Source: Escherichia coli
GTDB lineage: Bacteria > Pseudomonadota > Gammaproteobacteria > Enterobacterales > Enterobacteriaceae
DNA length: 64,000 nt
Reading direction: 5' to 3' (one strand)
Assembly: GCF_030384885.1 (NCBI RefSeq)
Contig: NZ_CP128613.1
Positions within the stretch are counted from its first letter, which is position 1; each line of letters starts with the position of its first letter. Of the stretch, positions 5,053 to 54,303 are shown piece by piece. Both the position numbers and the translations under genes were made by a program. Below the pieces are notes generated by a model, which ran no database searches, was not told where the DNA came from, and saw nothing but the letters and a program-made list of their open reading frames with translations.

Positions 5053-6351
5053 TTAATGTTGCGGTGCGGGATCGTTATGTGATTCCTGCGCCACCTCAAT
5101 AGCCGGTTTGTTCTGCAACACAGTCCAGATAACCAGCGCACCCAGCAGGTCGAATACTGCCAGAACTGCGAACAGCGGGCTGAAGCCGATGGTGTCAGCC
5201 AGTGCACCGACTACCAGTGCAAACAGCGTACTTGCCAGCCATGCGGACATCCCGGTTAAACCGTTCGCCGTCGCCACTTCGTTACGACCGAACACGTCAG
5301 AAGAGAGCGTAATCAGTGCGCCAGACAGGGCCTGGTGAGCAAAACCACCGATACACAGCAGCATAATCGCGACATACGGGTTAGTGAACAGACCGATCAT
5401 ACCTGGGCCAATCATCAGCACCGCACCCAGCGTTACTACCATCTTACGGGAAACGATCAGGTTCACGCCAAACCAACGCTGGAACAGCGGCGGCAGGTAA
5501 CCACCGAGGATACAACCAAGGTCAGCAAACAGCATCGGCATCCAGGCGAACATCGCGATCTCTTTCAGGTTAAAGCCGTAAACTTTAAACATGAACAGCG
5601 GGATCCACGCGTTAAAAGTACCCCAGGCCGGTTCAGCCAGGAAACGCGGTAGCGCGATACCCCAGAACTGACGGTTACGCAGGATCTGACCAACGGACAT
5701 TTTCTTCGCTGTGTCAACCTGGTGCTGGGCTTCCTGACCATTAATAATGTAGTCACGTTCTTCATCGGTCAGATGTTTCTGGTCGCGCGGATGCTTGTAG
5801 AAAATCAGCCATGCCATCGCCCAGATAAAGCTCAACGCACCGGAGATGATAAATGCCATCTGCCAGCTGTGCATCACGATTGCCCATACCACCAGCGGCG
5901 GCGCAATCATCGCACCAATCGAAGAACCTACGTTAAAGTAGCCGACCGCGATGGAACGCTCTTTTGCCGGGAACCATTCGGAACTGGCTTTCAGACCCGC
6001 CGGGATCATCGCCGCCTCTGCAGCACCTACCGCACCACGAGCAACCGCCAGGCCACCCCAGCTACCTGCCAGCGCGGTTGCGCCACAGAACACAGCCCAC
6101 AGTACAGCAAACATTGCGTAACCGATTTTCGTACCCAGCACATCCAGTACATAACCTGCTACCGGTTGCATGACCGTATAAGCAGCAGAATAGGCTGCGA
6201 TGATATAGGAATACTGTTGGGTGGAGATGTTTAACTCTTCCATCAGAGTTGGCGCAGCTGCCGCCACAGTGTTACGCGTCAGGTAACCAAGCACGGTGCC
6301 GAGCGTCACCAGTGCGATCATATACCAACGTAACCCTTTAATTTTACGCAT
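5053..6351 (-). CDS. exuT: ExuT hexuronate MFS transporter (432 aa)
   Basis: ORF 5053..6471; internal start MRKIKGLRWYMIALVTLG... (ATG 6349..6351) gives 432 aa. Confidence 0.9.
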   Translation of the reverse strand: MRKIKGLRWYMIALVTLGTVLGYLTRNTVAAAAPTLMEELNISTQQYSYIIAAYSAAYTVMQPVAGYVLDVLGTKIGYAMFAVLWAVFCGATALAGSWGGLAVARGAVGAAEAAMIPAGLKASSEWFPAKERSIAVGYFNVGSSIGAMIAPPLVVWAIVMHSWQMAFIISGALSFIWAMAWLIFYKHPRDQKHLTDEERDYIINGQEAQHQVDTAKKMSVGQILRNRQFWGIALPRFLAEPAWGTFNAWIPLFMFKVYGFNLKEIAMFAWMPMLFADLGCILGGYLPPLFQRWFGVNLIVSRKMVVTLGAVLMIGPGMIGLFTNPYVAIMLLCIGGFAHQALSGALITLSSDVFGRNEVATANGLTGMSAWLASTLFALVVGALADTIGFSPLFAVLAVFDLLGALVIWTVLQNKPAIEVAQESHNDPAPQH

Positions 6352-48995: not shown

Positions 48996-50234
48996 TTAAT
49001 CAGGCTTTGGACAACGTTGTTCCTTCCAGCTGGCTACCGCCGCAATCCGCCGTCGGGTCAGCTCCTCGCGAATCTCCACACCTTTAAATCCCGCTTCAAC
49101 GACGGCTTTTGTCGGCACTGACTGTGCCACTTCCCAGGCTTCGCGCAACCAGCGGCCTTGCGGGTAGTCCGCTGATTCAAAACCGGTTCTGCCGCGCACA
49201 TCAGCCTCGCTGGTCAGCGCCAGTTGCTCGACACGCTGCGGTTTACGCCAGGCGTCGATGGAATCAAATAGTTTGACGATGGTTTTTGGGTTCAGCATTG
49301 GGAAGGTGTGGATGAGATCGTGAAACTCAGCCACCAGTCTGGCTAAATCGCGAATTTCATTTGGCACGCGCAGACGCTGGCATAGTTGTTCCACTAACTT
49401 CACACCCGCCGGGCCATGACCATGATGACGCGGCCAAAGTTCTGGCGGCGTCAGTCCTTTACCGAGATCGTGGCATAGCGTTGCGAAACGGACATCGACC
49501 TGCGGACTTAGCATCGCCGCCATTGAGAGCGTCATTAAGGTGTGAATACCGGTGTCGATTTCCGGATGCCACTTGGCAGGGGCCGGAACGCCAAACAGGG
49601 CGTCAATTTCCGGGAATAAAACGCGCAGTGCGCCGCAATCGCGCAGTACCTGGAAGAACACCTGGGGATTGCGGGTAGTGAGGGCGCTTTCCGTCTCTTT
49701 CCACACCCGTTCAGGCGTCAGGTGTTCCAGTTCACCCGCGTGGGTCATCTCGCGCATCAGCGCCAGCGTTTCATCGGCAATACGAAAACCGAGGTGGGCA
49801 TAACGCGCAGCAAAACGCGCCACGCGCAGTACGCGTAACGGATCTTCGCCAAAAGCGGGGGAAACATGGCGCAACAGACGATTTTGCAGATCGCCCAGAC
49901 CGTTGTACGGGTCGATAATCTCGCCGTTATCGTCCTGGGCCAGCGCATTAATGGTCAGATCGCGCCGCTTAAGATCATCTTCCAGCGTGACATCCGGTGC
50001 GGCATAGCAGGTAAAACCGGTGTAACCGGAACCGGATTTCCGTTCGGTACGTGCCAGCGCATACTCTTCATGCGTTTGCGGATGCAGAAAAACAGGAAAA
50101 TCGCGGCCTACCTGCTGGTAGCCCGCGTCGAGCATCTCCTGTGGCGTACTACCGACTACCACCCAATCTCTGTCTTTGACCGGTAGCCCTAACAATGCAT
50201 CCCGAACAGCACCACCGACCAGATAAATCTTCAC
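48996..50234 (-). CDS. cca: tRNA nucleotidyltransferase (CCA-adding enzyme) Cca (412 aa)
   Basis: ORF track 412 aa [66 protein letters not shown]... Confidence 0.9.
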
Positions 50235-50297
50235 GCCATCATCCCTTCGTCAAATACACAATTCCTAATAATAAGACAGTGCAACGAAGAAGGCGAT

Positions 50298-50918
50298 TTA
50301 GTTCATCCAGCGATCTTTACGTTTGCGCGTTGGGATCAGGTGCGGCAGTACCAGACCGAGCAGCAAGCCAAGCCCCAGCACGCCGCCACCATACATAAAC
50401 CACTGCATGATGATGGTGCGCTGTTTGTCATCCAGCTGTACGCTGGCGGCATCGACCTTTTTCTGCGCGACAATCAGCTCGTTTTTCAGTTTCTGATTTT
50501 CTTCTTTTAACCCGTTGATCACGCTGTCGCTCTGCGCCACTTTTTGCTGCATTTCTGCGGTGCGCTGATTCCAGGTGTTATCGATATTGGTGAGCTTATC
50601 GGTCAGGGTTTTGACCTGATTTTCCAGATCTGGCACACGGGAGCGCAGGCTTGGCTCTGTGCTAAGTTGTTTCAACGGGATCCAGGCGGTACGGCCAGAG
50701 CTGTCTTTCACCTGGGCATAATTGGTGTTGGCATCAGTTTGTAATAAGGTCACTTCCTCGCCGGCGTTAACCGTGCCCACGAGGCGATAATGGTCTCCCG
50801 GACCGCTACGGACCCAGGTATTCAGTTCGTCGGAAACATAGCGCGTTTCTTCAGCGTGTGAGACGGCAGTCGCGCTAAGTGCGAGTAAAGTTAATCCGAT
50901 CAGGCGTAATTTTGGCAT
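50298..50918 (-). CDS. ygiM: SH3-domain membrane protein YgiM (206 aa)
   Basis: ORF track 206 aa MPKLRLIGLTLLALSATAVSHAEETRYVSDELNTWVRSGPGDHYRLVGTVNAGEEV...; signal peptide, SH3b, coiled coil, C-terminal TM. Confidence 0.85.
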   Translation of the reverse strand: MPKLRLIGLTLLALSATAVSHAEETRYVSDELNTWVRSGPGDHYRLVGTVNAGEEVTLLQTDANTNYAQVKDSSGRTAWIPLKQLSTEPSLRSRVPDLENQVKTLTDKLTNIDNTWNQRTAEMQQKVAQSDSVINGLKEENQKLKNELIVAQKKVDAASVQLDDKQRTIIMQWFMYGGGVLGLGLLLGLVLPHLIPTRKRKDRWMN

Positions 50919-51260
50919 CAGGCTGTCGTTATTGTCATGGAAAGTGGAACGATAGTAGTGGCATCAGTGTCGCTACGCAAAGCATTCGACATCAATCGGA
51001 ATCCTCTGTGTCAGGTCTTGCCACTGCTTCAAACTTTTACGCCCGTCAAATTGCCCGTTGCATGGCAATTTGGCGCAAAATACTATCTACTGACAAAAAA
51101 GATCGCATTAAGTTCGCCGTTCATCGTCACTTATGTGACATAACCGATAAGTAAAGGCTTTGACATCCTCCCCCACCTTCGCGCAAAGCGACTCAGGAGG
51201 GGGATTCCCTTGTCAGGGTAGCAATACGTTGCCGCATTGCCCGGTTCCTCGCTCGACGGC

Positions 51261-52466
51261 TTACGCCGCCTTACGGGCGCGTCCTTTACGGACTGACGGC
51301 AATATTTGTCCTGCCGCCATGACTTCAAAACCTGCTGTTAATATATTTCGAGCGCCGTTTACATCGGCGTTTGCCGTATAGCCGCACGCGGTACAGATAA
51401 AGCTCGCCTGCGCCCTGCGGTTAATTTTCGATGTATGCCCACAACATGCGCATTTCTGACTGGTGTACGCCGGATTAATCGCCAGCACATCACCGCCGCG
51501 CCATGCCTGCTTATATTCGAGCTGGCGGCGCATTTCTGCCCAGCCCTGATCCAGTATCGCTCGGTTAAGACCTGATTTTGCCGCGACGTTGCGCCCCGGC
51601 TGGTCTACCGTACCCGCTGCTGATTTTGACATGTTCGAAACCTTTAAATCCTCAATGACTATCATCGCGTGGTTTTTGCTGATCGTCGTCGTGGTTTTAT
51701 GAAGGTAATCGCGGCGGATGTTTGCGATATGAGAGTGGAAACGGGAAATCTTCGCTTTCTGCTTTTTCCAGTTGGCGGAGAATTTAACCTTCCGGGCCAG
51801 ATGGCGCTGTAAGCGAGCCAGCTTATCCTGATTTTTTTTAAAGCTGTTTACCGGTTCAAAGATCGTGCCGTCTGAAAGTGTTGCCAGCTTCGTTATACCT
51901 GCATCCAGGCCTATTGCGCTGGTCGATGCGTGAATCGGATCGGTAACAGCTAATTCGACCTGAAAAGACACATACCAGTGTCCGGCATGCTGGCTGATGG
52001 TGCAATTTTTAATGACGCCTTCAATCTTCCGGGACTGACGAAATTTAACCCAGCCCAGTCCTGACGGGAGTTTCACACGGCCATAATCCAGCCCACAATA
52101 TTTGCTGAAATTGACGAACCGGATAGAGTCGCAGCCTTTGGTTTTCTTTTTGAAAACGGGCTTTTCAGCCGTCAGGGATTTATCAAAACAGCGATCCCAT
52201 GCGCTCCGCAGGTCTTTCAGTTTCTGCTGGAGGTTGTCAGTGTAACCCTCAGCAAGAAAGGCCAGCTCAGGGAGTTTTTTCCAGCCCGTAAGTCGTTTAT
52301 TCAGGTCGAAAGCTGACGGAATTTTTCCGCCCGCGTCATGAATGCTCAGTGTTTCATTCAGTGCATAGTTCCAGACAAAGCGAGCGCAACCGCACAACTG
52401 ACGCAACCTTTGCGCCTGCTGGTCAGTGGGGTAGAGCCTGTATTTATATGCTTTCTGGATTAACAT
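51261..52466 (-). CDS. tnpB: TnpB (IS200/IS605 OrfB; RuvC-like RNA-guided endonuclease, 401 aa)
   Basis: ORF track 401 aa MLIQKAYKYRLYPTDQQAQRLRQLCGCARFVWNYALN...; RuvC motifs (IGLDAGI, VIEDLKV, NADVNGARNI) and CxxC...CxxC zinc finger (CACCGHTSKINRRAQASFICTACGY). Confidence 0.85.
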   Translation of the reverse strand: MLIQKAYKYRLYPTDQQAQRLRQLCGCARFVWNYALNETLSIHDAGGKIPSAFDLNKRLTGWKKLPELAFLAEGYTDNLQQKLKDLRSAWDRCFDKSLTAEKPVFKKKTKGCDSIRFVNFSKYCGLDYGRVKLPSGLGWVKFRQSRKIEGVIKNCTISQHAGHWYVSFQVELAVTDPIHASTSAIGLDAGITKLATLSDGTIFEPVNSFKKNQDKLARLQRHLARKVKFSANWKKQKAKISRFHSHIANIRRDYLHKTTTTISKNHAMIVIEDLKVSNMSKSAAGTVDQPGRNVAAKSGLNRAILDQGWAEMRRQLEYKQAWRGGDVLAINPAYTSQKCACCGHTSKINRRAQASFICTACGYTANADVNGARNILTAGFEVMAAGQILPSVRKGRARKAA

Positions 52467-52532
52467 TTTGCATTCAGTATGTGGTTATTTAGAATGTACA
52501 ATATATCCACATTTTTTTGGGAGGATCAATAC

Positions 52533-52931
52533 GTGTGCGAAATCAATCGTTCACGCTATTCAGCTTACCTGTTGCATGTTCACGTTGTTTTTATGACAAA
52601 ATACCGCCGTCCAGTTTTTGGTGAATTGCATCATGCAAACATGCGTCAGTATGTAGCGGAGGTATGCGCGGACTTTGGCGCCGAGTTAAAGGAATGTGAC
52701 GGCGAGGCAGATCATGTTCACATGCTGATTGAATACCCACCGTTGGTGCAACTCACAAAGCTGGTAAACAGCCTTAAGTCCGTTACCAGTAGGCGGCTGC
52801 GGAATGATTTTATTGATTTGCGCGCCGCGTATTCAAAGCCCGTACTCTGGTCACGCTCTTATTTCATCGGTTCATGTGGTGGAGCACCGCTGGAAGTTGT
52901 GAAAAAGTATATTCAGAATCAGCGTGGCTGA
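52533..52931 (+). CDS. tnpA: TnpA, IS200-type Y1 HUH transposase (about 132 aa from GTG; ORF-track ATG at 52479 gives 150 aa)
   Basis: HUH motif ADHVHMLIEY and catalytic Tyr region LWSRSYFIGSCGG; strong GGGAGGA Shine-Dalgarno 7 nt before in-frame GTG at 52533. Confidence 0.8.
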   Translation: MCEINRSRYSAYLLHVHVVFMTKYRRPVFGELHHANMRQYVAEVCADFGAELKECDGEADHVHMLIEYPPLVQLTKLVNSLKSVTSRRLRNDFIDLRAAYSKPVLWSRSYFIGSCGGAPLEVVKKYIQNQRG

Positions 52932-53001
52932 TAAACTGCGGGCTTAACAGCCCAAATTCCCCTCCCGCCTACGTTGGGGGGGAGTACCCAGTGGAGGAAG
53001 G

Positions 53002-54303
53002 ATGGCTCAGGAAATCGAATTAAAGTTTATTGTTAATCACAGTGCCGTTGAGGCGTTGCGTGACCATCTCAATACGCTGGGCGGCGAGCACCATGACCCC
53101 GTGCAGTTGCTGAATATTTACTACGAAACGCCGGATAACTGGTTGCGTGAACACGATATGGGCTTACGTATTCGTGGCGAAAACGGCCGCTATGAGATGA
53201 CCATGAAAGTCGCTGGAAGAGTGACTGGCGGTTTACACCAGCGCCCGGAATATAACGTGGCGTTGAGCGAACCGACGCTCGACCTGGCGCAGTTACCGAC
53301 GGAAGTCTGGCCGAACGGCGAATTGCCTGCCGATCTCGCTTCCCGCGTACAACCGCTGTTCAGCACCGATTTTTATCGCGAAAAGTGGCTGGTGGAACTC
53401 GATGGCAGCCGAATTGAAATCGCTCTCGATCAGGGCGAGGTGAAGGCGGGCGAATTTGCTGAGCCTATCTGCGAGCTGGAACTGGAGCTGCTTAGCGGCG
53501 ACACGCGCGCGGTGCTGAAACTGGCGAACCAACTGGTATCGCAAACCGGATTACGCCAGGGCAGCCTGAGCAAAGCGGCGCGTGGCTATCATCTGGCGCA
53601 GGGCAATCCCGCGCGTGAAATCAAACCCACCACCATTTTGCATGTTGCGGCAAAAGCTGATGTGGAACAGGGGCTGGAAGCGGCGCTCGAGCTGGCGTTA
53701 GCGCAATGGCAGTATCATGAAGAACTCTGGGTCCGCGGCAACGATGCGGCGAAAGAGCAAGTGCTGGCTGCCATTGGCCTGGTCCGTCATACGCTGATGC
53801 TGTTCGGTGGCATTGTGCCGCGTAAAGCGAGCACTCACTTACGTGACCTGCTGACTCAATGCGAAGCGACCATCGCATCTGCGGTATCTGCCGTGACGGC
53901 GGTCTACTCTACCGAAACGGCGATGGCGAAGCTGGCGTTGACCGAATGGCTGGTAAGCAAAGCCTGGCAGCCGTTTTTAGATGCCAAAGCGCAGGGCAAA
54001 ATCAGCGATTCCTTCAAACGCTTTGCCGATATCCATCTTTCCCGCCATGCCGCTGAACTGAAAAGCGTTTTCTGCCAGCCGTTGGGCGATCGCTACCGTG
54101 ACCAGCTGCCACGCCTGACGCGTGACATTGACTCAATATTGTTGCTGGCGGGTTACTACGATCCTCTTGTCGCGCAAGCCTGGCTGGAGAACTGGCAGGG
54201 ACTGCGTCATGCCATTGCGACCGGGCAACGCATTGAAATTGAACATTTCCGTAATGAGGCAAACAATCAGGAACCGTTCTGGTTGCACAGCGGAAAACGT
54301 TAA
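53002..54303 (+). CDS. ygiF: Inorganic triphosphatase YgiF (CYTH domain, 433 aa)
   Basis: ORF track 433 aa [45 protein letters not shown]...; GGAGGAAGG Shine-Dalgarno. Confidence 0.9.

Follow-up and report, generated by a model that had tools for sequence, protein, structure and literature searches.

A candidate TnpB guide-RNA scaffold overlapping the right end of an ISEc41-like IS200/IS605 element in Escherichia coli

The 64-kb window analyzed here, a stretch of 64,000 nucleotides from Escherichia coli contig NZ_CP128613.1, carries a two-gene insertion sequence (IS) of the IS200/IS605 family between ygiM (50298-50918, minus strand) and ygiF (53002-54303, plus strand). The element occupies 1842 bp (51160..53001), and on the minus strand its parts follow in the order left end (LE), tnpA (antisense), tnpB, and right end (RE). 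The name ISEc41-like rests on the RefSeq/NCBI annotation of its tnpA as 'IS200/IS605-like element ISEc41 family transposase'; a literature search for ISEc41 found nothing on its RNA, and the matches to the terminal 12-mer were unrelated primers. Over the 2151 bp compared, the window is 100% identical to E. coli strain 2013C-4282. Comparison with related copies strongly supports an omega-RNA at the 3' end of tnpB and the adjoining RE: the minus strand from 51316 to 51160 most probably (we put the chance at about 78%) represents the constant scaffold of a TnpB guide RNA that is fused to, and partly identical with, the RE of the element.

Both genes of the element encode proteins of the expected kind. 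The 401-aa TnpB (51261..52466, minus strand) retains the RuvC residues D188, E272, and D368 and an intact CxxC...CxxC zinc ribbon, and three Pfam domains, OrfB_IS605, Cas12f1-like_TNB, and HTH_OrfB_IS605, score above their cut-offs. It aligns over residues 2-379 with the TnpB structures of ISDra2 from Deinococcus radiodurans (8BF8, 8EXA, 8H1J; E = 7e-49), with the D-E-D residues kept. The tnpA gene (52479..52931, plus strand) is divergent from tnpB and encodes a Y1 HUH transposase (Pfam Y1_Tnp, E = 1.4e-39), the translation of which shows the HVHML and SYF motifs. The element thus has the protein set of an IS605-type transposon: a TnpA of the Y1 HUH class together with an accessory TnpB that combines a RuvC domain (OrfB_IS605) with a zinc ribbon.

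The boundaries of the element were established by comparison with genomes that lack it. The alignment of the window with the IS-free K-12 genome runs to 51158 and restarts at 53002, and the junction differs by one base. We rebuilt the empty site by joining the left and right flanks into an 80-mer; the resulting sequence, ...GAGCCAT|AGCCTTTAC... on the minus strand, matches many E. coli genomes, including the type strain, with 80/80 identity. Since the occupied site reads CCAT|IS|AGCC and the empty one CCAT|AGCC, with neither target duplication nor deletion, the element is 51160..53001 and, read on the minus strand, entered exactly on the 3' side of CCAT. IS200/IS605 elements behave in this way: they insert 3' of a short specific sequence, duplicate no target bases, and lack terminal inverted repeats. 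An imprecise insertion, considered for the single base that differs at the junction (G in K-12, A in the window), was rejected, as both alleles occur among empty sites and among carriers.

The same RE boundary emerges from the related copies. The terminus ...GGAGGATGTCAA (51160) is common to 36 relatives and 120 distinct metagenome copies; the 36 loci, which encode TnpBs with 47-84% amino-acid identity, all terminate in GG(A/G)TGTCAA, and similarity ends there. The last letters, GGATGTCAA, close all relatives, whether genome loci, metagenome cores, or plasmid copies. A preliminary description of this DNA, made from the window only, had held that the boundary, and with it the guide, could not be fixed; this is true of the window taken alone, but the alignment of IS copies that it proposed as a check places the end of conservation at 51160 and the start of the guide at 51159. 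The RE lies 101 nt past the tnpB stop codon, and not directly behind it with no structured tail, the arrangement that the description had named as speaking against its reading. In one relative, H83, similarity appeared to reach 13 nt into the flank, which on reading the sequence proved to be chance likeness. No further copies of the RE were found in the 64-kb window, where matches with two mismatches occur at chance level.

The structured part of the minus strand comprises five helices, named a to e, and a small hairpin, all described here as read in the RNA direction. The most distal, stem a (51297..51316, CGGCA-GGACAAAUAU-UGCCG), is located within the tnpB coding sequence and likely forms the 5' region of the scaffold; it appears in the minimum-free-energy fold, and in the homologous helix of the family all five pairs are compensatory. 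It is followed by the small hairpin GUCC-GUAAA-GGAC (51281..51293), a shorter version of GUCCGGG-AUUAAC-CCCGGAC in the Klebsiella relatives, and by stem b (51255..51270, GGCGGC-GUAA-GCCGUC), also part of the minimum-free-energy fold, whose homologous helix in the family has compensatory changes in 6/6 pairs. The tnpB stop codon UAA (51263-51261) falls within the GNRA loop (GUAA) of stem b. Downstream of it, the single-stranded motif GGAACC (51243..51248) is invariant in our four alignments (A1-A4) and served as an anchor in the 120 metagenome copies.

The remaining helices lie between tnpB and the end of the element. Hairpin c (51221..51240) is GCAAUGCG-GCAA-CGUAUUGC, with 8/8 pairs compensatory and 95% of the cells paired, and its loop is of the GNRA type in nearly all copies (GCAA, GUAA, and GCGA among the relatives). 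Hairpin d (51207..51218, CCCU-GACA-AGGG; 2/4 pairs compensatory, 94% paired) shares its last G with the conserved GAAU(CC) motif (51207-51202), and GGAATCC is nearly invariant across copies at the DNA level. Hairpin e (51170..51203), an imperfect palindrome in subterminal position in the RE, reads CCCCCUCC...GGUGGGGG and encloses an inner CGC/GCG stem; six of its nine pairs are compensatory in the family, and a U-U mismatch (column 60:83) is retained in 12/14 sequences. This hairpin is predicted to be both the TnpA recognition hairpin, as DNA, and the final helix of the scaffold, as RNA. The RE tail AGGAUGUCAA (51160..51169) closes the element and contains the predicted TnpA cleavage site TCAA (51163-51160). 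The proposed scaffold 51316-51160 therefore includes the last part of tnpB and terminates precisely where the RE does, as expected of an omega-RNA.

All three hairpins that the preliminary description had placed in this region exist where it put them, and two belong to the element: gcaat...attgc at 51221-51240 is a real minus-strand hairpin (hairpin c), and so is the G/C-rich inverted repeat CCCCCTCC...GGTGGGGG at 51170-51203, which coincides with hairpin e. The third, the near-palindrome ttatgtgacataa (51131..51143), had been taken for a part of the IS; it is host DNA, as the same sequence is present in the IS-free ygiM-ygiF intergenic region of K-12, and a guide of 20 nt would reach into it only with its far end. 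It is native to the divergent promoter region of ygiM and ygiF in E. coli. The range 51100-51300 proposed for the RNA falls short of the scaffold, which begins near 51316 within tnpB. Hairpin d, stem b, the small hairpin, and stem a, the last of them outside that range, are additions to the earlier picture. The central proposal, an omega-RNA region at this place, gained support from the exact RE terminus, the variable flank, the covarying helices, and the covariance-model match described below.

Folding of the minus strand from 51160 to 51420 as RNA gave z = -4.07, with none of 200 shuffled sequences folding as well, and the minimum-free-energy fold recovers every scaffold helix without comparative input. 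As DNA, the terminal 66 nt fold with z = -3.3. Alignment of mixed subfamilies with MAFFT and RNAalifold was abandoned: the length-variable middle hairpin and the 5' part of the window sequence were misaligned. Instead, the structure was set by hand on a subfamily alignment (A4, 14 sequences, window excluded), next to which a family alignment of 45 sequences (A3) was used. In A4, 89% of the cells are paired, compared with 36-50% when partners are slid, and 11 pairs are compensatory; in A3, the paired fraction is 91% and 20 of the 27 pairs are compensatory. The slid-partner controls for the two alignments together span 36-55%, and in both the covariation score was reached by 0/500 shuffles. Stems a and b covary within tnpB codons, and in A3 the protein sequence shifts there while the pairing stays. 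The region thus has a conserved secondary structure supported by covariation.

The 14 other sequences, without that of the window, were used to train a covariance model, R1. It has a single strong match in the 64-kb window, full length at 51160-51256 on the minus strand (96.9 bits, E = 4e-26). The Nissle copy and one metagenome copy score 90.8 bits each, more distant members of the family score 16-40 bits, and the empty K-12 locus has no match.

Many metagenome copies (L047-L051, L055, L065, L089, L102, and others) have no tnpB coding sequence in the stretch about 110 nt upstream of the matches and keep a scaffold of ~150 nt that ends in GGAGGATGTCAA. They resemble small non-autonomous elements with the guide-RNA module as their sole content. 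In another copy, L069, the RE terminus ...GGGAGGATGTCAA, located upstream of 5148-5294 (minus strand), is directly followed by a second scaffold, so that two modules stand in tandem.

In about 150 copies, the flanks beyond TCAA are unrelated to each other, as expected if each guide is copy-specific and derived from the flank. With the RE terminus at 51160, the guide starts at 51159 (AGCCTTTACTTATCGG...), and the predicted guide of the window copy is AGCCUUUACUUAUCGG(UUAU) (51140..51159, minus strand), which is host DNA adjoining the RE and present in K-12; other TnpBs are the basis for its assumed length of 16-20 nt. At base 51159 (minus strand) the window has A, and five other E. coli carriers and metagenome copy L118 have G. 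Empty sites, too, come with either allele, a pattern suggestive of recombination or repeated change at the junction; such variation is expected, as the sequence is flank-derived. Two clearly different IS variants on Klebsiella plasmids (L040:2721-2842 and L164:366-488) share the post-RE flank GTAGCTGAACATTTCCAGGAA, one of them having a 5' scaffold of the window type and the other a typical one; two insertions at one site could account for this, or else a swap of the IS body by recombination.

The tetranucleotide CCAT (53002..53005, minus strand), the reverse complement of ATGG at the start of ygiF, stands 5' of the LE, and CCAT occupies this position at five insertion sites of the subfamily. 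These LE flanks make CCAT the predicted transposon-associated motif (TAM) of TnpB. The empty site reads CCAT|A/GGCC, and by the published logic of TnpB (PMC8612924; 10.1101/2023.03.14.532601) the RNA-guided target is predicted to be CCAT followed by the RE flank; this sequence forms the empty ygiM-ygiF site, which exists in most E. coli genomes. A preference of the IS for start codons, considered because CCAT corresponds to the ATGG of ygiF and the LE offers GGAG, was rejected, as none of the other four insertions lies at the start of a gene.

The guide-RNA mechanism of TnpB has been described before (Karvelis 2021, PMC8612924; Meers 2023, 10.1101/2023.03.14.532601; Nety 2023, PMC10278001), and we compared the element with known systems. 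ISDra2 has a homologous TnpB with the same D-E-D residues and an RNA that extends over the RE as well as the 3' end of tnpB, with a guide taken from the flank (PMC8612924), the arrangement that is predicted here. An ISDra2-like RE, GAGAATCAC-hairpin-TGAGGTTCAA, has the same terminal layout as GGAATCC-hairpin-GGAGGATGTCAA in the window. The scaffolds differ in sequence and in helix pattern: R1 has no match in the ISDra2-like locus L168, and only the terminal GAATC-hairpin-GAGG..TCAA layout is common to both. The target and TAM of ISDra2 is TTGAT (PMC8612924), compared with the predicted CCAT, and, unlike in ISDra2, tnpA and tnpB are divergent. The generic and Geobacillus omega-RNA covariance models of Meers 2023 (10.1101/2023.03.14.532601) follow the same method and define the RNA in the same way, as a non-coding RNA that overlaps the tnpB open reading frame and extends to the RE boundary; there, too, the boundary was placed where the conservation of copies stops, and tnpB-less mini elements keep the scaffold. 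Those elements are from Geobacillus, whereas the present one is from E. coli. The Rfam motifs IS605-orfB-I and IS605-orfB-II (RF03065, RF02998) are likewise RNAs associated with tnpB (orfB), and neither matches here. By analogy with the ISDra2 and Geobacillus TnpB systems, the scaffold appears to be an uncurated omega-RNA of an already known kind that would work as they do.

For the DNA side of the RE, the closest model is IS608 of Helicobacter pylori, which inserts 3' of a tetranucleotide without duplication and has subterminal imperfect hairpins at both ends; the mechanism of its TnpA was reportedly described by Barabas in 2008 and He in 2011. The RE cleavage site TCAA and the GAAT 5' of the hairpin are identical in the two elements. 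The LE of the present element (52940..53001, minus strand) was delimited by alignment of left ends and has the terminus CCTTCCTCC, the tetranucleotide GGTA (52988-52985), an imperfect palindrome (52959-52984), and a second hairpin (52940-52953). Both ends therefore carry a subterminal imperfect palindrome preceded by a tetranucleotide, GAAT...hairpin...TCAA in the RE and CCAT|...GGTA-hairpin in the LE. By the pairing rule of IS608, the tetranucleotides would match the cleavage sites, and every position of GGTA has a pairing partner in CCAT, the relation that AAAG and TTAC have in IS608. The two elements differ in their target, TTAC in IS608 versus CCAT here, and in gene order and orientation. 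The DNA fold of the LE alone is not significant (z = -0.28).

From these comparisons we infer a course of transcription, processing, target recognition at CCAT, and cleavage that would run as follows. Transcription would pass through tnpB, probably from a promoter-like site upstream of the gene (52529-52500), and across the RE into host DNA. The 3' part of the transcript would then be excised, probably by TnpB itself, as guide-RNA processing by TnpB has been reported for ISDra2 (PMC10278001), to give a scaffold of ~157 nt to which 16-20 nt of flank (AGCCUUUACUUAUCGG...) are attached. In complex with this RNA, TnpB would recognize CCAT and the guide sequence in the empty ygiM-ygiF site left by TnpA excision and cut it, and recombination of the cut site with the sister copy would restore the IS. 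As single-stranded DNA, the final ~48 nt, consisting of GAAT, the imperfect hairpin, and TCAA, would serve TnpA.

Several observations weigh against a working omega-RNA in this copy. A scan for sigma-70-like promoters found none within the 3' part of tnpB, so that expression of the RNA depends on transcription of tnpB. Searched against Rfam with cmscan, the stretch 50000-54000 had no match at E <= 10 to any family, RF03065 and RF02998 included, the gathering thresholds of which were not reached; these two families are reported to cover only a small subset of TnpB omega-RNAs (Meers 2023, 10.1101/2023.03.14.532601). Set against the family consensus, the scaffold has a different 5' half in the window and in its Klebsiella relatives, where GCCUGUGGAG and the CCUG:CAGG closing helix are lacking, and this type of 5' half has no covariation support of its own, because it is near-identical in the few copies seen. 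The covariation of hairpin e taken alone does not separate an RNA role from a DNA role. The element is found as a single copy at one site in 148/5426 E. coli genomes; differences in tnpB among the carriers are nonsynonymous about twice as often as synonymous (~2:1), and strain 1105 has a tnpB frameshift. Among the carrier loci compared for breaking changes (L171-L173 included; positions 51239, 51260, and 51840), a helix-breaking substitution occurs at 51239 in Nissle, strain 1105, and metagenome copy L118 and another at 51260 in 2020CK, the window copy having neither of them.

The signs of relaxed constraint make the E. coli element look, in sequence comparison, like a slowly decaying passenger, and the rival that builds on them holds that the omega-RNA sequence and fold were inherited by descent, while the TnpB/omega-RNA system no longer works in the E. 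coli lineage and its structures are not maintained. Vertical inheritance at a single chromosomal site in a subset of genomes, the excess of nonsynonymous changes, the frameshift, the broken helices, and I348 in the TnpB of the window, where the other carriers have N, all fit such a relic. Yet the window copy has a full-length tnpB with D188, E272, D368, and both CxxC pairs, all of its helices are intact, its R1 score exceeds that of the Nissle copy, and tnpA is identical in 4/5 of the carriers compared; we therefore regard a relic as unlikely, albeit the first alternative to be kept in mind. Far less credit is due to the view that the hairpins are nothing but the single-stranded DNA structures that TnpA needs at the RE, with no function as RNA. 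In its favor, hairpin e between GAAT and TCAA reproduces the right-end layout reported for IS608, a similar palindrome is present at the LE, and the conserved T-T mismatch is typical of such imperfect palindromes; but TnpA, as far as is known, requires just a subterminal hairpin and ~50 nt. We read the region as RNA because covarying helices reach ~157 nt from the end, the loops are GNRA tetraloops, covariation proceeds within codons at the cost of amino-acid changes, and the mini copies without tnpB keep the entire scaffold of ~150 nt. Least credible of all, and barely worth entertaining, is an intrinsic terminator or an mRNA-stabilizing 3' structure of tnpB: stable GC-rich hairpins do stand directly past the stop codon, but no T-run follows hairpin e, the terminator scan of 51100-51300 found nothing on the minus strand, and the conserved structure comes with invariant single-stranded motifs and ends exactly where the transposon does, neither of which a terminator would require.

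A more speculative and rather doubtful extension of the omega-RNA reading concerns the sub-lineage formed by the window and the Klebsiella copies, in which a 5' module may have been swapped: the C-terminus of TnpB would have been exchanged along with the 5' half of the scaffold, with the stop codon moved 50-58 nt upstream into a GNRA loop and the CCUG:CAGG helix lost. If so, this sub-lineage would represent a working variant omega-RNA that uses the non-T-rich TAM CCAT, and in E. coli the element might also be kept because its LE supplies ygiF with a ribosome-binding site (GGAGGAAGG|ATG) and transcription.

These results leave known TnpB biology unchanged. They specify the transposon ends and predict the ~157-nt scaffold, the guide, and the CCAT TAM for a common E. 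coli lineage that includes Nissle 1917, ATCC 25922, and their relatives. The predicted natural target, the empty ygiM-ygiF site, is present in thousands of genomes. The omega-RNA family with the pattern GGAACC...GGAAUCC...GGAGGAUGUCAA is widespread, and the Rfam copy that was searched contains nothing that matches it, so that annotation pipelines relying on Rfam miss it.

The left end of the IS exactly adjoins the start codon of ygiF (52985-53005, plus strand), and ygiF has thereby lost its native 5' untranslated region and promoter; it may now depend on read-through from tnpA. On the plus strand, the LE places GGAGGAAGG directly before this ATG, and the relatives show GGAGTAAAG or GGAGAAAAAG at the same position. 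The Nissle and 1105 copies (L172 and L173) lack one nucleotide of the C-run in the LE hairpin (52976).

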